A DNA stretch of 64,000 nt from a virus (IMGVR_UViG_3300001598_000050:6461-70460), one strand, 5' to 3'; shown: positions 17,735 to 32,238, counted from the first letter of the stretch. Numbers and translations are program-made. The notes: generated by a model from the sequence alone, not told the origin.

Positions 17735-18118
17735 CTATTCAATATAGCGGGCGCGTTCATATTCCACAACGTAATGCCTGTCCGCAGATTCAAATTTTTC
17801 TTTTATTCTTGTGTAAAGATAATAAAATGCATCTTCATATGCGAGAAACTCCGCATAACATTCGTCGTTTTTAATTGTAGGATGAAAAGTATTGTATAAG
17901 TGGTGTACATATCCTTCAATACTTAAAGTTGCAGTTGGAACTGGTTCATCACTAACAGCTATTTGGTCTTGAAGAAAATTACAACAACTTGAAAGCTCTA
18001 TATTAAACAGGAAAGATAGCCACTTTACACGTCTCTTATGACTTTTTTCTTTTTTCAGTTTAAGTTTAGACTCGTTATCCAATGCTTCTTCTTTTAGCTT
18101 AGTATAAGTTTTAATCAT
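17735..18118 (-). CDS. hypothetical protein; frame continues past the TAG to a TAA at 17684
   Basis: 127-aa ORF; after the TAG the same frame reads SCITVRWIEDIDWQRG-TAA, ending 4 nt before the next start. Confidence 0.6.
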   Translation of the reverse strand: MIKTYTKLKEEALDNESKLKLKKEKSHKRRVKWLSFLFNIELSSCCNFLQDQIAVSDEPVPTATLSIEGYVHHLYNTFHPTIKNDECYAEFLAYEDAFYYLYTRIKEKFESADRHYVVEYERARYIE

Positions 18119-22866: not shown

Positions 22867-23336
22867 TCGCCTTCTCCTAACTGTAAAAGTACTGAGTAGT
22901 CAGAGTCAAGAAAAACTCTGCGCTTTACTGAAGGCAGTTCAATCATTCTGTAAGTGCCTTCAGCAAGCATTTTTATATTAACTGACTTTTTACCATCGTT
23001 CTTCATAGCTGTAATTGAGCTTATTGGTACATAAATAACTTTATCATGGTCAATAAACCATATTACAACGCCAGCCCGAACGCCAGGCACACCGACCTTA
23101 GTACAAAGTTTATCATACTGGGTCAGATTTACCAGCGGAAATGTATTGCCTAAATGAGACTTTGCTTCCAGATAAAAAATATTCGGATAGTTGTAGCCTA
23201 TAAAATCACTTATATTGGCAATTCCGCGATAACCATTAGTAGTATCATAAATACGGTCTATTGTACCTTCCGGAAATGATTTTTTAAAATCATTCAGCAA
23301 CTTAGCTTCAAACTGTTTGCCTTTATTATTTGGCAT
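22863..23336 (-). CDS. recU: RecU-like Holliday junction resolvase
   Basis: NKGKQFEAK, ISDFIGY, YLEAKS, TQYDKL. Confidence 0.8.
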   Translation of the reverse strand: MPNNKGKQFEAKLLNDFKKSFPEGTIDRIYDTTNGYRGIANISDFIGYNYPNIFYLEAKSHLGNTFPLVNLTQYDKLCTKVGVPGVRAGVVIWFIDHDKVIYVPISSITAMKNDGKKSVNIKMLAEGTYRMIELPSVKRRVFLDSDYSVLLQLGEGE

Positions 23337-23341
23337 AGCTA

Positions 23342-24475
23342 TCAGCCAGCTTTCTTGATAATTACAGGAATGAGATTGCTGATGTCGCCGTGTGTAAATG
23401 TCACTGTCTGATAATTGCCACAGTTAAGTGTAATAAACTCGCCAGGCTGACAAGCATTAACAACAAGCTTTACATCCTGAAGATTAAGCAGAGTAGAATA
23501 ACAGCCGCTTACAACACTGTCAGCTTCAACAGGCACAACTTCTGTATTTTCGTTAACTGCTGTAAAAGTAACGTCAGTGCCGGTCACATCGACCTGAGCA
23601 ATAAATATACCGTTATCGGTTCCTGCTGTGCTGTTCTTAGTAAACTGCATAAGTCTATTAAGCGCAGCTCCAAGAGTATTAGCAGAAAGTACCACTCTAT
23701 CCGGATAATTGTCTTCAAACATACCCTTTGCAGCAGCAATTCCTCTGAGCATTGTATTAATAAGCTCATCATCATTAGTAATAAGTGCAGCAAGATAAAC
23801 ATCAGCAGTTTCAAATACTGCAATAGTATGAGCCTCGCCTCTGTAAGTTCCCTGTCCAAGTGTAAACTGTACGTCGCTCTTAAACAGCTTTGTAAGCTTA
23901 ATAATTCTGTCATTAAGCAGCATTTTTACGGGCTTTTCAAGTGTAAACTTATTTACACAGGCGCCTACTGCAAAAGTATAACAGCCGGTTTCATCAATAA
24001 AGTATTGCTTTTTAAGCTCACTTATCTTAGCATCTTTCTTCACGCCGTCGATAATTCTGCCATTAATCTTCAGAATACCATTAAGGATCTCTTTGCTGAT
24101 AGGCATTTCAACAGTCTTTTCTATGACAAAAATAGGTGTAAGTGTTGCAAGCTGGTCATTTTCAAAAATCATAGGCAGCTTATACAGACTCTTTCCATGT
24201 TTTACAACAACTGTATTGTCCTTTACGGACAGGTCAAAAGTTTCTGTAGTAATGCCCGCAATCAAGTCAAGAAACTGAGTGGCTTCTACCACCGCTCTGA
24301 AATCTTCAAAAGTGTCAAGCGGAAATCTTACTGCCACATAGTACTCACTGCCATTAGTCACATTAAGATACAGCGCTGAATCACGTGCTGCAAGTTCAAG
24401 ATTAGAATTGCTGCCTCGTGCAGCCAGCAAAATGTTTTTACATGCGTCCTGAAATTCCTTTGTCTTAAGAATCAT
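23342..24475 (-). CDS. dnaN: DNA polymerase III beta-like sliding clamp
   Basis: 377 aa, the size of a three-domain beta clamp; N-terminal LELAAR..LYLNVTNG, alternating beta/alpha pattern, C-terminal LIPV; clamp-loader genes in the same window. Confidence 0.7.
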   Translation of the reverse strand: MILKTKEFQDACKNILLAARGSNSNLELAARDSALYLNVTNGSEYYVAVRFPLDTFEDFRAVVEATQFLDLIAGITTETFDLSVKDNTVVVKHGKSLYKLPMIFENDQLATLTPIFVIEKTVEMPISKEILNGILKINGRIIDGVKKDAKISELKKQYFIDETGCYTFAVGACVNKFTLEKPVKMLLNDRIIKLTKLFKSDVQFTLGQGTYRGEAHTIAVFETADVYLAALITNDDELINTMLRGIAAAKGMFEDNYPDRVVLSANTLGAALNRLMQFTKNSTAGTDNGIFIAQVDVTGTDVTFTAVNENTEVVPVEADSVVSGCYSTLLNLQDVKLVVNACQPGEFITLNCGNYQTVTFTHGDISNLIPVIIKKAG

Positions 24476-24528
24476 TTTTTTAAGTCCTTTCGAATAATTT
24501 ACTACTAATATAATACAATATTTTTACG

Positions 24529-25841
24529 TCAAAATTCAAGCTGGTCTGTCTCACCCGATAATACAGCTTCAATAGCTTCCTGTGGTATTTCAGCATGTGC
24601 TTTAAAGACCTGCTGACGGGCTGCGTCTTTATCCATACCTGATTTCTCTAACTTCTGATATTCTTCAAGAATTGCTGCCGCGTATTCATCTGCATACCAG
24701 CGGCCTACTACATACGCATCACAGCTTTGAGGCACGTCATCTCCGACTTCTGCTGCTGCAGCTATCATAACTTCAGGTAAACGCTTAGCAACTCTGTCTG
24801 CATAATAAGCAGGACATTCCATAAGCAGTTCATCGTGTACAGGAATAATCAGCTTTGCCTGACAGTCCTTCAGCTCCTGGTCTCTCGAAATATCTACCAT
24901 AGCTATCTTAGTCAACGAGGCCGCGGATCCTTGTACACGAGCATTAAAGCACTGTCTCGCTGCCTGAGAAATACGTCCTGTCCATGCAAAAAGGTCTACA
25001 CGATCATTCGGAATAAATGTAGGCAGTTTATCAGCACAATCAGCCCTGAAACGGTCCAGGATTGCGTCGAACTCTGCATGGGCAGGTAAAATAACGTCTG
25101 TACTCTGTCGGCCTTTCTGGAGCTTGTAGGACCGTGTGGACAAGAGCTCTTTTATCGCTGTAATATCCTTCATAAGCCTTTCGCGGCAAGAAGCACTGTA
25201 TTTATCTGCTTTTTTGTCAAGATCGTAAAAACTCTTAGCATCAAGATACCATTCAGGATTTGCTGCAATTTTTTTAAGCTTGCTGAAAGTAGCATTTGCC
25301 ATAGAGTACTCTGCTTTATAAACAGGCTTATAGTCAGGGTCTTCTTTGGCAGACTGTACATCTGTTGCAAGCTTTCTTGCATTAGCTAAAACAGCTTCTG
25401 CCAGCATTATTACTGTCCAAATCTCTTCCGGATCATTCTGAGTACGCTTATTTGAACAACCTAAGAACGGATTAAATGTTGCACCCTCATCCTTAAGATC
25501 CTTCAGCTTGGCTTCATAAGGCTGCATATTGATATCTTGCAGTCTTCTTCTGCGACCGACAAAATCTTCTACATAGCCATTTTTACGTAAAAATTCTTTT
25601 GAGCCCTCAATAGCTTCGTGCACTTTCGGAAAACCTGCAAAGAAATTATCCAAAAGTTCCTGTCCTTTTACTCGGGCCTCATCACCGGTAAGACCCATTT
25701 TAGCGCCTGCAGTTGCGGCTGACATCCCGTAGGACGTGGCTAGCGCTAAAGGTTCAACACCTTGCCAACGGAACGTCTTTCTTTGCCCGCTTTATTAAGT
25801 ACCTTTGCTGGGGACTTAACGACAATTGTTGCTGAACTCAT
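24529..25841 (-). CDS. polA: family-A DNA polymerase, C-terminal piece (motifs B and C); needs an 8-nt skip at 25741-25748
   Basis: RBS GAAAGGAAGGTGA, ATG at 25841, MSSATIVVKSPAKVLNKAGKERRSVGKVLNL-[TAGCGCTA]-ATSYGM...GRRRRL...NARVQGSAA...PVHDEL. Confidence 0.85.
25741..25748 (-). other. 8-nt coding gap in polA motif B (putative translational bypass, CUU-UAG-CG-CUA)
   Basis: removing TAGCGCTA restores R-x3-K-x7-YG spacing (RSVGKVLNLATSYG). Confidence 0.8.
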
Positions 25842-25843
25842 TT

Positions 25844-25905
25844 ACATCACCTTCCTTTCATAATTAACATCTAAATATATTATACATTAATATTCTTTAC
25901 ATTTT
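25844..25905 (-). promoter_or_regulatory. promoter and strong RBS for the polA C-terminal piece
   Basis: TTGAAA-18 nt-TATAAT with extended TG; RBS block GAAAGGAAGGTGATGT at 25844-25859. Confidence 0.7.
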
Positions 25906-25911
25906 CAAACA

Positions 25912-26390
25912 TTAATTTTCAATAAAATTAATCTTTATCTGAGCTACTTTTCCGCCTTCAAGTTGTACTGTATCTGCAGTTTCCGTGTTCTGCACAGTCA
26001 ATTCTCCAATGCTTGAAATAACTTTCATGCCTGGCTTGAGCTCAGAGGCAGCAAGTTCACCAGTACTCGTCGGAACTAAATAAAAACATGGAACTGTTAT
26101 TGAGCTATCTTCAGTTGTAACTTTTTTTTCTTTTCCAGAGCCGGCATATACTTTCTTGCCGTCTACTTCAAGTTCACGACCTTCAGGATGAAACTCTTTG
26201 TTGTCCACATACTCATTATGAAAAGCAGACTGTGCAATAATAGCATATAAGTCTTTACCATTATTGTAAGCATCATACATTTTCGGCTCTTGGGAAATAT
26301 AGGTAGTAAGTCGAGGATCAGCTATTCCTGAGCGGAATAATCGGATCCAACGATCCTATACTGCGTTCTAGTATTAATTGTTCTACTCAT
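25912..26390 (-). CDS. polA: family-A DNA polymerase, middle piece (motif A); needs an 8-nt skip at 26317-26324
   Basis: RBS GAAAGGAAGGTGA, ATG at 26390, MSRTINTRTQYRIVGSDYSAQE-[TAGCTGAT]-PRLTTYISQEPKMYDAYNNGKDLYAIIA. Confidence 0.85.
26317..26324 (-). other. 8-nt coding gap in polA motif A (putative translational bypass, GAA-UAG-CU-GAU)
   Basis: removing TAGCTGAT restores DYSAQEPR (compare E. coli DYSQIELR). Confidence 0.8.
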
Positions 26391-26395
26391 AGAGG

Positions 26396-26453
26396 ACATC
26401 ACCTTCCTTTCTTGCTTAAATAAGCATTAAATATTTTACATACTATTATACAA
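26396..26453 (-). promoter_or_regulatory. extended -10 promoter and strong RBS for the polA middle piece
   Basis: TG-TATAAT at about 26452-26445; GAAAGGAAGGTGATGT at 26396-26411 is identical to the block before the C piece. Confidence 0.65.
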
Positions 26454-26489
26454 CATAATACCGCTTGATATTAGTAATTCACATAGTAA

Positions 26490-28322
26490 TTAAATACTTT
26501 TTGTCCAAATATATTTTTTACTTCCTGCACCAAAAAGCTGCGCAATAGAAGCGTCCTTCAGTTCAGCATGACGACGAGGCTTTCGGTTAACAACCTGTCC
26601 GTTCTTTAACAGCCACTTCATGTCAGGGCCTGTGTAGCCGGCAAATTGCATTCCGGCGGCTTCATAGCTTCGGCCGTCAAATTTATTAAAGTCGCAATAA
26701 CTGAAAATTTTACTTGGCCGATAATCGGTAATAAAATGTTTTAAAAGCTTAGACACTCCGCCAACTACTATATTATTGCTGCCCGGACAGCCACGAATAA
26801 TTTCCCACTCGGTGTCTGTACTAATATTTCTATTGTACCGGGTATGACTGAAACTCATCAACTGCACAAGCTGTCCTTCATAAAATAATCCATAAGTAAC
26901 CTGTGCTGCACGATGTCCCTGTAAATGTACCTGTTCATTTAAAACAGCAGCCTCCGCATTTGTAATTTGGCGAATCTCACAATTACGAGCATAAACACGA
27001 GACTTGACTCTACCTAAAGCAATATCTAGCATCAATTTAATTTTTTCACGCATAGTCGGATCTTCCCATTCATACTCCCAAATATGGATGAGCCTAATAC
27101 CAGCGGCTTCAGCAGATTTAGACTTATTAAAATGATAATTTTTATCCGGCTGTACTTCAGTAGAGTGCCAGTAAGTGCCATTAAATTCGATTCCAATTTT
27201 TTTACTTGGAATATAAATATCAATTTCTTTACCACTGAGGACTGTCCTGCTATTCATTTCGCATAAGTCAGCTCCGATATAATCTGCAATTTCCTGTTCA
27301 TAATGACTTATTCCAGTGTACTGCTTCTTAATCATACCAAGTAAATTATTCTTACTTAATAAATAATAAGCATTATCACGAGAAATCTGAAGCTGTTGAG
27401 CAATATCATAGATAGATTTATCTTTGCAAAAGTCAGCAAGGGCCACAGGGTCTTCAAATAAACTTAAATATAAATCCGAATAATTCTCAGCAGAATACTT
27501 ATTCTTGCGCGCAGTCTGACAGCGCTTCTGCCTTATTTCTGGATTATTCTGCCACTCTGTTGATAAAAAGGCATAGTCTGTGCCATAAGTAGCCTGGTTA
27601 TACTGCTTAATGGCTTCTTTTCCTTTTTCGGAGCCTAAAAAAGTATTTGCGCCATAACGTTCTTGGCAGGTTTTCTTTGCTTGCACCCGATTGGTAAAAT
27701 GTGTATCACCATAGCGTTCTTGCTTAGTAGTACTGCTCTTTTGTTTTAGTTCTTCTACCTGAAAAGTGTTATCACAACCATACCTAGCCTGACAAGTTTC
27801 TATACATTTTGCACGGTTATTAAAATTAGGATCTCCATAACGTTCCAGCTTAGTTTGTCTGGCTTTTTCCTTAATTTCTTCAGGAGTCACATTCGAGGGC
27901 TGTAGATGCAGTTTATCTCCCCAGGTAGGGCTATATAGTGCCTTATTGGTTGCAATTTGCTCCTCCCGCTTGGTATGGGGCGTAATATTATATAAGTGAA
28001 GCAGATAATTTACAAAATATTCTTTAACTGCAAAATGCTCTGCAGTTAAATATGCAGAGCTGGTTTTGTAGTAATCAACTATTTCTTGCCGCTGTTCTTC
28101 TGGGACTTCATCGTAACCGTCAGCGTGCAAATGTATATATAGATTTGCTTCCGCAAAAGAATGTGGTGGCAAATTATGCAGTTTACAAAAAATATTCATT
28201 GCACTGCGAGATAAATTAAATTTTCGAGCGGTTTCTGCTACATTGTGCTCTTTGTAGTAGTCACAAATTGCCTGGATGGTTTGTGCATCCAGCGATTCAG
28301 CCGCGCTTTTTCGGTTACCCAT
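26490..28322 (-). mobile_element. free-standing putative homing endonuclease (Hef/Vsr-like PD-(D/E)XK) inserted in polA
   Basis: N-terminal HTH-like repeats, (E/A)RYG repeats, EIDIYIPSKKIGIEFNGTYWHS nuclease motif, C-terminal VYARNCEIRQ domain; sits between two polA pieces. Confidence 0.8.
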
Positions 28323-28324
28323 AG

Positions 28325-30229
28325 TTATACCTCGATTTGATATGTTTTTGCGACAGAATTATATGAGATATTTTTTATCATTTCCTGTGTACCGTCTACT
28401 AAAATTGCACTGCCTGCTGTAAGACTGTCACAATATTTAAAACCGTCAGGAGTCTCAACTTCAGTTATTTCGGGCACAGTAAATGTATTTTCAGCGTCTG
28501 CCTCGATTAATTTAGCAGATGATGCAGCCTTGAATAGCATACGGCATATTTTTCCGTCGCCTCTGCTTGGTATATTTTGAATGTTAATTCCACTCACAGT
28601 AACCTGTTCGTCTTTATCATTCAGCCAATGCCATTTGCCACCCGATGAATATCTGCCTGTATTTGTGCCTGTAGCATTGAGATGAAAGCGAATTCTACCA
28701 TCTGGCCAGTGCTTTGCAAGCTCAGGAATAACGTCAATATAAGTTGTAATCAACTTCATAAAAGCCCTGCGCTTCAGCAGCATACTTGCAAGATTAGCCG
28801 CATAAGCCCATTTTTTGTCTTTTGAAATATCATCAGGGCGGTCAAGGGCTTCTTCAGCCTCTTCCATATCACCGTCTTCATTCGTCTCAGCTTCTTCGGG
28901 ATCTTCAAGCATAGGCAGATATCCTGCAAGCTTTTCTTTAATTTCTATCAGCTGATCTTTACCTGTTTTCCTGTTAGTTGTGTCGCCAGCTGTTACTTCA
29001 AGCACATCGTAAAACAGAATTGCAAGCTGAGTAGGTGAAGCAAAGTTTACAGGATTGTCCAGCTGTGCTGCTTTTGATTTACCTATCTTATAGCGGTTTC
29101 CGTCGTCATCGATGTTAGGATATTCCTTTTCAATCTTTGCCTGTGCCATTGTAGTCTTTTTAGGTACATACGTTCTTGTCTGCTCATTGTTCTCAGGCTT
29201 CAGACGCCACTCATTAATTACGCCAGCAATAGCTGACATGGTTTCATCTACTTTTCTGTCAAGCTGATCAAGTAACTCGTTATACTTCTCTTTCAGTTTT
29301 GCACCTAGTTTCTCGTCTACACCAACTCCTGTGAGCTCCATCTCAGCTGTAACTACTGTTATAGGCATTTCTACTTCATGAAATAACCAGCGAATACCCG
29401 GAAGCATTCTGGTACCTGTCATATCGAGATGCGGGCCATACTCGTCTTTTGTAAGTTCTTTTTCCTGCCGCTCATAGAGTTTATCAGTCATAAATGCGTC
29501 GGTTGCGCTATAAAGTGCAAAGACTTCCGGATCTACATCAGCATATGCAACGTGCTCAAACAGTTTTTCAATATCATATTTTTCCTGCTTAGGGTCTATC
29601 TTAGTTACATACTGAGACTTTAAACCTGCAAGCTCATTTTCATTCAGAAGTCTTGCACAGGTCATTGTGTCCCAGTAGGGCTTCATTTCAACTCCGCAAG
29701 TGCATTTCAGAACTTCGTAATCGAATTTAGCGTTATGAAAAATTTGCTTTATTCCTGAATCATTGATTTTTATGAGTGCTTCTGTAATATCCTTTTCAGT
29801 CAGCTGCCAGGAAAGACGTTCTTTCGTCTCAGAATTTCGATGATTAATCGGAACATAAGCCTGTTTACCGCCCGGATAATAAAAACACGGGCCCATAAGC
29901 TGACAGTAGCTGCAGTCTGTGGTATTATTTGTTTCAGTATCTATTGCAATTCGGCCAGAAGCAATAGCATTTGCAATATAGGTGTCAAGCTGTTCTTTCG
30001 TCTTAATAACCAGAACATTTTGTTTTTGTTTTCCGAGTACTCTGTGAACAGTTGAATTAATAATAGCAAGTCTCTCCACAAGAGTAATTTTTCTGGACTT
30101 TAAAGCTTTTCCAGCATCAATATCCTCTGCGGGTTTCTCAAGCTTTTTCTTAATCTTCTTGGTGCTCACTTTGGGCAACTGAATGTCTAAGTCATCACCA
30201 AAAATAGACACATAACTGTAGTTTTCCAT
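28325..30229 (-). CDS. polA: family-A DNA polymerase, N-terminal piece (3'-5' exonuclease and thumb) with a C-terminal appendage
   Basis: IAIDTET (Exo I), IFHNAKFD (Exo II), YSATDA (Exo III), TGTNTGRYSS, INIQNIPSR, RMLFKA. Confidence 0.92.
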   Translation of the reverse strand: MENYSYVSIFGDDLDIQLPKVSTKKIKKKLEKPAEDIDAGKALKSRKITLVERLAIINSTVHRVLGKQKQNVLVIKTKEQLDTYIANAIASGRIAIDTETNNTTDCSYCQLMGPCFYYPGGKQAYVPINHRNSETKERLSWQLTEKDITEALIKINDSGIKQIFHNAKFDYEVLKCTCGVEMKPYWDTMTCARLLNENELAGLKSQYVTKIDPKQEKYDIEKLFEHVAYADVDPEVFALYSATDAFMTDKLYERQEKELTKDEYGPHLDMTGTRMLPGIRWLFHEVEMPITVVTAEMELTGVGVDEKLGAKLKEKYNELLDQLDRKVDETMSAIAGVINEWRLKPENNEQTRTYVPKKTTMAQAKIEKEYPNIDDDGNRYKIGKSKAAQLDNPVNFASPTQLAILFYDVLEVTAGDTTNRKTGKDQLIEIKEKLAGYLPMLEDPEEAETNEDGDMEEAEEALDRPDDISKDKKWAYAANLASMLLKRRAFMKLITTYIDVIPELAKHWPDGRIRFHLNATGTNTGRYSSGGKWHWLNDKDEQVTVSGINIQNIPSRGDGKICRMLFKAASSAKLIEADAENTFTVPEITEVETPDGFKYCDSLTAGSAILVDGTQEMIKNISYNSVAKTYQIEV

Positions 30230-30257
30230 TTACTGCTCCTTCTGTTTCATATACTAT

Positions 30258-30295
30258 ATAATACAATAAAGACAGCCCTGAATTGAGCTGTCTTT
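30258..30295 (-). promoter_or_regulatory. fused terminator hairpin and extended -10 promoter
   Basis: AAAGACAGCTC-loop-GGGCTGTCTTT-ATTG-TATTAT upstream of the polA N piece. Confidence 0.6.
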
Positions 30296-30314
30296 AAAGT
30301 TTTTGTACTTTTTA

Positions 30315-31190
30315 TCAGAAATGGAAACCGCCAAACTGTCTTGCAGGTGCTGCAGCAGGTTCAGAGGCTTCTACGGGGCTCTGTGGGGCCTGCGGAGCTA
30401 CAGGGGCTGCAACTGTCTGGGCAGGAGTTGCAGGAGCTACAGGGGCCGCGGCAGGAGCTGCAGGAACGTAGGGTGCACCATACTGAGAGGAAGCTGCAGG
30501 AGCTGCCGGAGTCGAAGCCTGAGTATTTGAAGCAAACTTACCTTCTGCAAGATACTGCATCATATCAGCCGCTGACTTTACCCAGTAGTCATGCTTTGCA
30601 GGGTCATAGCCTTCAAATGCACTGAAGTCTTCAGGAATCATGCTTGCAGGACAAGAGGTACTGTCTTTATCAATGGGAAGAGGTGTATATCTGGTTTCAG
30701 TCTTCTGACCAGTACGAGTAATCTTGAAAAGTCTCTTTGAAAGATCACCATACTCAGTAATCATGCCAGTAAGTTCCTTTGCAAAACCATACGGTCTTTC
30801 CCAGATTACAGGTGTGGGTGCTGTCCAGGCGTTTGTCTTAGGATCCTTATAACAAACCAGCATAGGCACAAAAATCTTCTGCTTTGCTTTACCGATTACA
30901 GCGTGACCTGCATCAGCAGCATTACAGAACGGGCAATTGCCGTAAGAGCCGTAAGGATTCAAACAGCTAATGCCACTGAAACCGGGAATACCTTCAAATC
31001 TGGTGCCAAAGTTAGCTGTGTGGGTTGTTGCACCACGGAAGTCATCAGCTGAATGGATAGCAAAACGGACTACAGCAGATTCACCATCGCCAAGAGTCTT
31101 GAACCAGCCAATCTTGGGTCCGTTGCTGTTGTTGTCATTTGAGGTCTTAGGTGCGTTGTTCTGATAATCATTGTAAGAAAAAGTACTCAT
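30315..31190 (-). CDS. ssb: single-stranded DNA-binding protein (gp32-like)
   Basis: replisome context, CLNP...CPFC cysteines, VIWER, YGDLSKRLFKITRTG, Pro/Ala-rich linker, aromatic tail FGGFHF. Confidence 0.7.
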   Translation of the reverse strand: MSTFSYNDYQNNAPKTSNDNNSNGPKIGWFKTLGDGESAVVRFAIHSADDFRGATTHTANFGTRFEGIPGFSGISCLNPYGSYGNCPFCNAADAGHAVIGKAKQKIFVPMLVCYKDPKTNAWTAPTPVIWERPYGFAKELTGMITEYGDLSKRLFKITRTGQKTETRYTPLPIDKDSTSCPASMIPEDFSAFEGYDPAKHDYWVKSAADMMQYLAEGKFASNTQASTPAAPAASSQYGAPYVPAAPAAAPVAPATPAQTVAAPVAPQAPQSPVEASEPAAAPARQFGGFHF

Positions 31191-31248
31191 TTTAATTTCT
31201 CCTTGTTACTCTTTTTATTTTTGCTTACAGTATATAATACAATAACTT

Positions 31249-32238
31249 TTACTGGAATTTGACATCTTTAAAATATTTTTCAACTAAATTATTCCATTCA
31301 TCATCCGACAAATCATTCGGGTCCTTTTTTCCTGCAGGAAACTGTACGTCTGTTGTCAGAATATTCGGTGATAAACTTTTTTTAATAAGTGCATTGAACT
31401 TTTTTCCTGCCCAGTCGTTATCAAAAGCTAGATATAAGCTTCTTAACTCTGACTTATTCAACGACTCAATCTGCTGTGGCGACATTTCACCAAGCATTGC
31501 AACAGCAGGTACTCCATGTGTCCAGCAGGTAAGCATATCTATCAAGCCTTCAACAACCATACAGGTCTTTATGTTGTACTTCTTAATCATATTAAGCCCG
31601 TAGACTGGTTTATCAGCATTTTCAGTCATATAGAATATTTTAGAGTCTATAGAACGCTTAGCGTACATAACTAAGTTGTCTGTTGCGTCTTTAATCGGAA
31701 AGATTACCTGTCTGCGTGTCGGATCGTATTTTACCTGAAACTGATAACAAACATCTCTGCTCAGATTTCTTTTTGCAAGATATGAACACCAAGACTGATA
31801 AGTATCAAACTCTGACTGTGTACGCAGAAAGTCGGAATCAAATGCCTGAGCGGCTTTTGATTTATTAAGCTGAATAAAGCCTTCCATAGGCTTGGTGGTT
31901 TCACAAAGAACACCATAATTCTTTATCAACCATTCCTGAGCATAATCAAGTGAAGAGCTAAAACACAACGCAACAAACCGGTCAAAGCTACCATGCTCGC
32001 CACAGGCAAAACAGTGAAATGCCGCAAAACGGGCTTTGGACTCATCTAAGTTTATATGACAGTCTGGATGTGCTTCAAGACCACCCGCATGCTCATCGTT
32101 AGGGCAAGTAACTACCAGTTCGTCCTGTTTAATAACTATATCTCGCAGCTTACCGTTCGTCATAATACGCTGAAGATGAAATACTATCTCCTGAACAGGT
32201 GTGTCAATTATATAGTTTTTTACTCTTATACTACTCAT
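31249..32238 (-). CDS. dnaG: DNA primase (zinc finger and TOPRIM)
   Basis: CPNDEH...HCFACG zinc finger, VIFPI, VVEGLIDML, LAFDNDWAG, KDPND. Confidence 0.92.
   Translation of the reverse strand: MSSIRVKNYIIDTPVQEIVFHLQRIMTNGKLRDIVIKQDELVVTCPNDEHAGGLEAHPDCHINLDESKARFAAFHCFACGEHGSFDRFVALCFSSSLDYAQEWLIKNYGVLCETTKPMEGFIQLNKSKAAQAFDSDFLRTQSEFDTYQSWCSYLAKRNLSRDVCYQFQVKYDPTRRQVIFPIKDATDNLVMYAKRSIDSKIFYMTENADKPVYGLNMIKKYNIKTCMVVEGLIDMLTCWTHGVPAVAMLGEMSPQQIESLNKSELRSLYLAFDNDWAGKKFNALIKKSLSPNILTTDVQFPAGKKDPNDLSDDEWNNLVEKYFKDVKFQ

Follow-up and report, generated by a model that had tools for sequence, protein, structure and literature searches.

Putative split-and-hop cassettes with 8-nt coding gaps in the three-piece polA gene of an uncultured rumen-type virus

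The window analysed here is the whole stretch IMGVR_UViG_3300001598_000050:6461-70460 (64,000 nt), from a ~70-kb fragment of a large uncultured rumen-type virus (completeness 31%, CheckV), and its family-A DNA polymerase gene (polA) lies on the minus strand at 24529-30229 as N, middle and C pieces, each separately started. We consider it probable that two paralogous split-and-hop cassettes reside in this gene, that their 8-nt gaps are hopped by the ribosome, and that the gaps serve the self-immunity of a homing endonuclease. The sequence evidence supports the view of this locus as a short-range, double counterpart of the rare T4 gene 39-mobA-gene 60 arrangement, and a literature search returned no published description of such an arrangement.

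The three-piece polA gene and its gaps

The window was compared with 127 related loci (L numbers) collected from IMG/VR and metagenomes using an alignment-based search; a single-protein locus search of IMG/VR had given nothing. The polA region contains the following features, with positions counted from the first letter of the window.

28325..30229, minus strand: polA N piece, 634 aa; 3'-5' exonuclease, thumb and palm start to "...IQNIPSRGDGKICRMLFKA", then a C-terminal extension; ends with TAA
28328..28525, minus strand: C-terminal extension 1 (CTE1), 66 aa, beta-rich, Hint-like; not in unsplit relatives, e.g. L004
26490..28322, minus strand: free-standing homing endonuclease gene, 610 aa; ATG 2 nt past the N-piece stop
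26325..26390, minus strand: middle piece before the gap; N-terminal extension MSRTINTRTQ and motif A strand YRIVGSDYSAQE; take-off codon GAA
26317..26324, minus strand: gap A, TAGCTGAT; TAG right after take-off codon GAA; landing codon GAT; resume codon CCT
25912..26316, minus strand: middle piece after the gap, PRLTTYISQEPKMYDAY...IEN and stop; remaining motif A helix, fingers, then C-terminal extension 2
25915..26139, minus strand: C-terminal extension 2 (CTE2), 75 aa; homologue of CTE1
25749..25841, minus strand: C piece before the gap, 31 aa; N-terminal extension MSSATIVVKSPAKV and motif B start LNKAGKERRSVGKVLNL; take-off codon CTT
25741..25748, minus strand: gap B, TAGCGCTA; TAG after take-off codon CTT; landing codon CTA; resume codon GCC
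24529..25740, minus strand: C piece after the gap, ATSYGMS...; remaining O-helix, fingers, motif C (VHDE) and C-terminus; Pfam DNA_pol_A, E 1.8e-27

An earlier note on this DNA had described polA as three separately started pieces around an endonuclease. All its coordinates were reproduced, and the stop of the N piece followed by a 610-aa endonuclease is found both in the list of open reading frames (ORFs) and in a match to PHROG 3339. Membership of family A is indicated by the exonuclease domain, by motif A (GSDYSAQE/PR) and motif B (RRSVGKVLNL/ATSYG) when the gaps, marked by slashes, are skipped, and by VHDE in the C piece; the N piece matched Pfam DNA_pol_A_exo1 (E 1.2e-15) and DNA_pol_A (E 6.3e-10).

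From the ATG at 26390 the middle piece reads 22 codons (MSRTINTRTQYRIVGSDYSAQE) and then TAG, and from the ATG at 25841 the C piece reads 31 codons (...RRSVGKVLNL) and then TAG. Gap A lies in motif A, 66 nt past the new start, and gap B in motif B, 93 nt past the new start, distances that had been given in the earlier note and that hold in the sequence. An 8-nt skip restores DYSAQE/PRLTTY at gap A and KVLNL/ATSYGM at gap B. Relatives with an unsplit polA, a comparison that the earlier note had proposed, are ungapped at the same motif spacing without extra residues: ungapped relatives read GSDYSAQEPR(L/I/M)T and K.L.LA.TYGM, and pass through motif A as ...GSDYSAQEPRLT... The junction peptides of the hopped products would be IVGSDYSAQEPR and VLNLATSYGMSAATAGAK. 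The gap A allele is identical in L045 and L094, which come from other samples. A scan of the window for a stop plus matched codon gave 319 chance matches within ordinary genes, so that this pattern was considered as meaningful only where homology fixes the gap. As a separate observation, gap B is a perfect 8-nt palindrome, which may reflect a repair scar or a protein site or have no meaning.

In the proposed mechanism, one cassette would have entered polA immediately ahead of motif A and the other immediately ahead of motif B. In each, the upstream piece would gain a non-splicing, intein-derived Hint-fold tail closed by a stop, and there would be space behind it for a free-standing gene of a homing endonuclease, which is present at break 1 and presumably lost from break 2. 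Each cassette would further bring a -10 element, a Shine-Dalgarno sequence of exceptional strength with ATG AGT, a short N-terminal strand completing the Hint-like domain, by which the pieces would reassemble non-covalently, and, 66 or 93 nt past the start, a short insert in the conserved motif that opens with a stop. With UAG in the A site, a ribosome that has reached GAA or CTT, the take-off codons, would not terminate. Its peptidyl-tRNA would re-pair 8 nt downstream on the near-cognate GAT or CTA, and decoding would resume at the next codon; with DYSAQE/PRL and KVLNL/ATSYG restored at the ungapped spacing, the polymerase would stay functional. The gap pattern, a slow stop in the A site and a matched landing codon, can be read as the signature of peptidyl-tRNA take-off and re-pairing described for T4 gene 60 and for synthetic stop-hops (PMC5009743; bioRxiv 10.1101/2022.08.31.505936), which points to hopping, and the three-piece enzyme is presumably active. 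By analogy with the 50-nt gene 60 gap and MobA, the insert most likely destroys the recognition or cleavage site of the endonuclease in its own genome.

The Shine-Dalgarno sequence of the endonuclease gene, GAGGT, lies within the final codons of the polA N piece. The 610-aa product matched PHROG 3339 "homing endonuclease" (E 5.5e-89) and, in Pfam, DUF7487 and the REase-like MTES_1575 (E 2.3e-5, below the family cut-off). A profile built from 4 homologues gave a match over ~60 residues to the Vsr-like I-Bth0305I (3r3p, E 0.0024), and on these matches the enzyme is probably Vsr-like; a search of NCBIfam gave it no useful name.

Gaps, splits and nucleases in related loci

Gaps were called from the distance between anchor peptides flanking each motif. 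Motif A was found ungapped in 70 loci and with a 4-12-nt gap in 33, and motif B ungapped in 97 and with a 6-12-nt gap in 13. The gaps form ~21 allele families, 20 of them headed by a stop that immediately follows the final in-frame codon (14 families with TAG, 4 with TGA and 2 with TAA). In 17 of the ~21 families the landing codon, formed by the final three bases of the gap, agrees with the take-off codon at its first two positions, which is expected by chance at ~1/16 per allele; examples of take-off and landing codons are GAA..GAT/GAG/GAA, TCN..TCN, GCC..GCT, CTT..CTA/CTC, TTG..TTG and ACT..ACT. Written as take-off codon, intervening bases and landing codon, examples of GAA alleles are GAA-TAGCT-GAT (window, L045, L094), GAA-TAGCCT-GAG and GAA-TAGCCCT-GAA; examples on Ser or Ala codons are TCT-TAG-TCT, TCG-TAGT-TCG, TCY-TAGCGRAAR-TCW and GCC-TA-GCT; and examples of CTT alleles are CTT-TAGCG-CTA (window), CTT-TGATG-CTA and CTT-TGAAT-CTC. 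TTG-TGACGAAAC-TTG and ACT-TAGCGT-ACT are further examples. Covariation of the two codons is seen in a compensatory pair, TCG-TAAG-TCG (L042) vs TCT-TAAG-TCT (L054).

In all gapped loci a split lies shortly ahead of the gap (33 of 33 for motif A and 13 of 13 for motif B), and no gap was found in the ~44 loci that are contiguous at motif A or the 93 that are contiguous at motif B; gaps without a history of splitting, a possibility raised in the earlier note, did not occur. The endonuclease genes residing in the breaks are of four kinds.

Vsr-like, PHROG 3339: window, L045/L094, L054, L081
GIY-YIG with NUMOD motifs: break 1 of L006, L029 and L076; break 2 of L010/12/13, L017/20, L049, L060-62 and L074
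HNH-like, PHROG 655: L042, L040
PHROG 4645: L123

A gap lies 60-100 nt downstream in 13 of the 14 endonuclease-bearing breaks, and the break of L127, which holds a non-nuclease ORF, has no gap. Identical gap alleles are found with and without a nuclease (L081 vs L007/L070, and L010 vs L089), and break 2 of the window was therefore considered as a cassette minus its nuclease. This agrees with the earlier suggestion of a relic: relatives carry a GIY-YIG gene at the same break, L089 has the L010 allele and no nuclease, and the tail of one break is a homologue of the other. Among the relatives found with the three-piece layout, L054 is the closest (56% identity to the window over the best-matching C-piece segment); it has both gaps and a nuclease at break 1 only, its break 2 being gapped and nuclease-free.

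Two pairs of loci differ by a cassette. With flanks 85-90% identical to those of L004, L003 carries an additional 235-nt insert made of a 63-aa tail, TAA, a Shine-Dalgarno sequence and ATG plus 10 codons, and also has a 5-nt gap 30 nt beyond this insert. Tail, stop, Shine-Dalgarno sequence, start and gap therefore travel together. L010 and L011 differ by the break-2 cassette and a 12-nt gap. The tie between gaps and mobile cassettes that had been postulated is thus borne out by the restriction of gaps to the vicinity of breaks, by their presence at nearly all nuclease-bearing breaks and by the L003/L004 pair.

In L044 (3420-6365) a genuine intein with a LAGLIDADG endonuclease resides in the polA N piece (Pfam Intein_splicing, LAGLIDADG_3). 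Since this locus is in addition split at break 1 and has a gap of 7 nt, its polA combines three kinds of selfish insert.

Restart signals and Hint-like tails

The following signals were found ahead of the two new starts.

26445..26450, minus strand: TATAAT of the middle piece; weak -35; missed by the sigma-70 scan
25879..25908, minus strand: predicted sigma-70-like promoter of the C piece; TTGAAA-18-TATAAT, 11/12 matches in the scan
26396..26411, minus strand: 16-nt Shine-Dalgarno block GAAAGGAAGGTGATGT, copy 1; predicted duplex with the 16S tail of -20.0 kcal/mol, top of 71 starts
25844..25859, minus strand: 16-nt Shine-Dalgarno block GAAAGGAAGGTGATGT, copy 2; predicted duplex of -19.2 kcal/mol, second of 71 starts

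Both restarts are preceded by TGTATAAT, which differs from the canonical extended -10 (TGnTATAAT). Of the statement that each piece has its own TG-TATAAT, the TATAAT part holds at both restarts and the canonical extended -10 does not, and the sigma-70 scan passes the C-piece promoter only. The 16-nt block, which had been described as identical at both restarts and followed by ATG AGT, was recovered as such, with exactly these two copies in the window when up to 3 mismatches were allowed. Over the 71 window starts, the next best Shine-Dalgarno duplex after the restarts is -13.4 kcal/mol and the median -8.1 kcal/mol. Among the break-1 restarts of relatives, gapped loci have a median of -21.1 (n=29) vs -7.6 (n=21) for ungapped split loci, the two distributions being without overlap; a very strong ribosome-binding site thus goes with the gap and not with the split. 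Such a site may make up for hopping that is inefficient, or participate in the hop, and a second reason for finding gaps only near new starts may be that a failed hop there costs just 22-31 residues.

It is possible, if rather doubtful, that the cassettes are self-contained units (degenerate split intein as a non-covalent clamp, promoter, near-perfect anti-Shine-Dalgarno complement and 4-12-nt stop-hop) in which the hop is driven by strong initiation nearby. Closely spaced ribosomes may collide with the one paused at the stop and push it forward, and split-and-hop cassettes may be installable at different conserved polymerase motifs. If true, a hop driven by strong initiation would represent a new programming of efficient short bypass, without the stem-loops or nascent-peptide signals of gene 60. 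In L054 (NFZD01013590.1; 4300-4420, 4780-4885), both restarts share a ~26-nt block of their own, TAAAATTAAATTTTGAAAGGAGGTGATG, which is unlike the block of the window, and the two cassettes of this genome seem to evolve in concert.

The CTE1 and CTE2 profiles were aligned using hhalign with a probability of 97.5% (E 7.8e-12, 49 columns) in a run limited to the tails; whole pieces had aligned over the shared motif A residues only. Some relatives carry the break-1 tail fused to the N-terminal strand as a contiguous insert of ~78 residues, which was predicted by AlphaFold to be all-beta (pLDDT 81.6). When this model was compared with 48,161 representative PDB chains, 14 of the 14 best matches belonged to the Hint superfamily and were mostly inteins (Z 7.1-4.2, rmsd (root-mean-square deviation) 1.9-2.8 A, 61-66 residues aligned), with the split inteins gp41-1 and NrdJ-1 among the best; the Z values are middling, so that the argument is carried by the uniformity of the match list. 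A Foldseek search of PDB returned weak intein rows only (E ~0.1). The splicing residues are not conserved, and the Hint-like module is best taken for the relic of an intein that would now clamp the pieces non-covalently.

When the middle piece was modelled in complex with the first 31 aa of the C piece, the ipSAE was 0.78, vs 0.55 for the best control; the ipSAE mark used was reached by 58 of 80 solved complexes vs 2 of 110 mismatched pairs. At least 75% of contacts were common to the runs, with a partner pLDDT of at least 63, and residues 2-16 of the C-piece N-terminal strand are predicted to dock on CTE2. As a prediction, the model supports binding of the strand to the tail. In L043 (3990-4010; IMGVR_UViG_3300021255_001010), the conserved Trp of the Hint insert is replaced by an in-frame TGA (DG-stop-KY vs DGWKY), and this virus probably reads TGA as Trp, in a code 4-like manner.

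Alternative readings, known systems and genomic context

Conventional recoding, in which a +2/-1 frameshift (5- and 8-nt gaps) or stop readthrough or suppression (in-frame gaps) would leave 1-4 extra residues in motifs A and B, appears unlikely. In its favour, the window has an open resume frame for a few codons ahead of the landing codon, and TAG, which ends 1 of the 69 window ORFs, could be a weak stop. However, one site would need two unrelated mechanisms. Frameshifting is not the common mechanism, as many gaps keep the frame (6, 9 or 12 nt), and since TAG, TGA and TAA are all used in such gaps, no single suppressor suffices; in addition, no tRNA gene was found within the window. The extra residues would also break the K-F-Y register of the O-helix (i, i+4, i+8, as in the Klenow fragment), exact if the gap is skipped. 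Recoding of TAG was likewise rejected as an explanation: the 69 window ORFs are intact under code 11, all three stops occur in the gaps of relatives, and 8-nt gaps shift the frame. Termination followed by a downstream restart would yield five polypeptides, including 22-aa and 31-aa micro-subunits held by the Hint-like clamp. Gene callers do begin the downstream ORFs at the first post-gap ATG, and the N-terminal strand could anchor a short peptide, but the resume codons (CCT, GCC, GCA, CAA, AGA, GGA, TAT) have no start codon at or near them. Moreover, the 11 codons from the conserved Arg after gap A, ahead of the first ATG, are conserved as protein (R(L/I)T(A/T)F.S..) with many synonymous changes (1470 synonymous vs 1723 non-synonymous codon differences over 28 distinct alleles); they are thus translated in the resume frame, which rules out a restart at the first downstream ATG and makes this scenario highly improbable. 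Removal or absence of the 8 nt at the nucleic-acid level (RNA editing, a micro-intron, heterogeneity or assembly error), leaving a continuous mRNA, is considered as very unlikely. Identical alleles were seen again in separate assemblies made from other samples (window/L045/L094; L010/L012/L013/L089; L007/L070/L081/L108). Known self-splicing introns are all longer than 4-12 nt, no group I or other intron came up when 23000-32000 was searched against Rfam (E up to 1), and the codon-register pattern of an A-site stop and a matched landing is not predicted by such a process.

Ligation of the three pieces by a working split intein, as in the "fractured genes", would find some ground in the Hint fold of the fused form, whose best matches include gp41-1 and NrdJ-1, and in the free-standing, probably Vsr-like endonuclease between the halves, as in PMC2677866. 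Against it, the splicing residues (Cys/Ser 1 at the N junction, TxxH block, terminal (His-)Asn and +1 Cys/Ser/Thr nucleophile) were not conserved among 43 CTE1 tails, 8 CTE2 tails and the N-terminal strands, and ~15 extra residues stand ahead of the Hint core. We know of no active mini-intein as small as this domain of ~78 residues. A Hint-like module that is much shorter and has no splicing residues implies that assembly must be non-covalent, and protein trans-splicing is accordingly hardly credible. The reading given the least credence is that of a decaying polA, its gaps being inactivating scars of an endonuclease cut and error-prone repair, with another polymerase replicating the genome. 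Sloppy repair of staggered cuts can leave small insertions flanked by short repeats. However, no PolB or Pol III alpha gene was found in four complete or near-complete relatives (221-237 kb, CheckV 95-100%), so that the polA gene, probably the sole DNA polymerase gene of this phage, is needed. Catalytic motifs are all intact, purifying selection acts on both flanks of every gap, the repeats keep codon register and tolerate third-position differences, and ~21 allele families persist over diverged phages.

Several points weigh against hopping and its role in self-immunity. Known short hops in E. coli, natural as well as synthetic, are reportedly ~1% efficient, a value attributed to Weiss et al. 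1987, whereas polA is essential. RNA structure around the two window gaps was not significant (z -0.30 and -0.99). Three allele families match at codon positions 2-3 only (CCG..TCG, TCC..GCT and CTG..GTG), and the 4-nt allele of L085 has neither a stop nor a clear landing match. The break of L040 with an HNH-like endonuclease has no gap, and many splits have neither a nuclease nor a gap, so that an immunity role is not obligatory. The locus counts are not phylogenetically independent, and the link of gaps to splits could come partly from the hop needing a strong start nearby rather than from co-mobility.

The T4 gene 39-mobA-gene 60 system with its 50-nt bypass was reportedly described by Huang et al. 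1988 and Bonocora et al. 2011, and is treated by Manning and Atkins (bioRxiv 10.1101/2022.08.31.505936). The likeness to it drawn in the earlier note is sustained by the split around a free-standing endonuclease, the extensions, and the stop-led gap with a matched landing. In both systems a free-standing homing endonuclease interrupts a replication gene that is essential, with C- and N-terminal extensions at the break and a new start downstream, and the stop comes right after the take-off codon (codon 46 in T4 vs codons 22 and 31 here) and is followed by a matched landing codon. In contrast, the target is polA here and a topoisomerase gene in T4, two cassettes occur here in one gene, the gaps measure 4-12 nt vs 50 nt, and no take-off stem-loop is detectable here. 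The nuclease is probably Vsr-like here, whereas MobA is of HNH type; the extensions here would form a split Hint fold; the gene 60 cassette has no sequence homology here; and cleavage and immunity, shown for MobA, are presumed here. With another nuclease, an 8-nt gap, no stem-loop and Hint tails, the locus is thus a functional counterpart and not a member of the MobA family. MobA elements occur in several states (nuclease lost and bypass kept, bypass lost and split kept, fusion, nuclease swapped to Vsr-like or GIY-YIG; bioRxiv 10.1101/2022.08.31.505936), and these states are reproduced in the locus family of the window.

Fractured genes (Dassa et al. 2009, PMC2677866) share with the locus the occurrence in phage replication genes, the order N half, endonuclease and C half on one strand, the Hint-fold flanks, the endonuclease (here probably Vsr-like), and control elements arriving with the insert; the module is shorter here and has no splicing residues, and fractured genes have no coding gaps. 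The locus is a combination of MobA-element and fractured-gene features. The nrdA of Aeromonas phage Aeh1, split by mobE, and T4-like gp43 polymerases, split around a GIY-YIG gene, are likewise essential enzymes interrupted by a free-standing endonuclease, with break extensions and active reassembly (PMC2677866; bioRxiv 10.1101/2022.08.31.505936), with neither a bypass gap nor a Hint-like module. Synthetic stop-hops in E. coli and the byps of Magnusiomyces capitatus mitochondria (PMC5009743) share a slow A-site codon and re-pairing on a fully or 2/3-matched codon a few nt on; the former are artificial and inefficient, and the latter span 27-55 nt, have no endonuclease link and involve an unassigned sense codon. 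According to a 2016 review no natural in-frame stop-hop was known (PMC5009743), and the T4 gene 60 cassette was called "unique" by authors in 2022 (bioRxiv 10.1101/2022.08.31.505936).

Programmed bypassing in phages has so far rested on one family, the T4 gene 60 element, and the window with ~45 gapped relatives would constitute a second, independent and much simpler bypass system. Dozens of natural variants in gap length, take-off codon and stop are ready for reporter assays. Bypassing would be tied again to the self-immunity of homing endonucleases, which suggests a general route of cut, scar and hop, and the intein fold would have been reused as a non-splicing clamp for split enzymes. For annotation, many "fragmented" phage polymerase genes in metagenomes would have to be considered as intact.

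Downstream of polA, ORF translations indicate a sliding-clamp-like gene (23342-24475, minus strand), and upstream of it genes for single-stranded DNA-binding-like and DnaG-type primase proteins (30315-32238, minus strand); together with polA, this looks like one replication module. A megablast search of deposited phages found no close DNA relatives of the window, and a protein search matched only distant PolA genes, e.g. that of Clostridium phage phiCTP1. All 69 window ORFs of at least 80 codons are on the minus strand, and they end with TAA (48), TGA (20) or TAG (1). The sole TAG-terminated ORF is 17735-18118 (minus strand), whereas TAG heads 14 of the ~21 families of gap alleles; in this phage and its host it may act as a slow stop. 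Motif A of L085 (4700-4760; JAEIGA010000531.1) reads GAG CGGG CCT, with the rare codon CGG following the take-off codon, and break 1 of this locus holds three ORFs of no known nuclease family; the insert could be a hungry-codon variant or a defect. L010 and L013 are the two ends of IMGVR_UViG_3300031555_003626 (233,329 bp), with a polA locus at each, a sign of either a long terminal repeat or circular permutation of the assembly.

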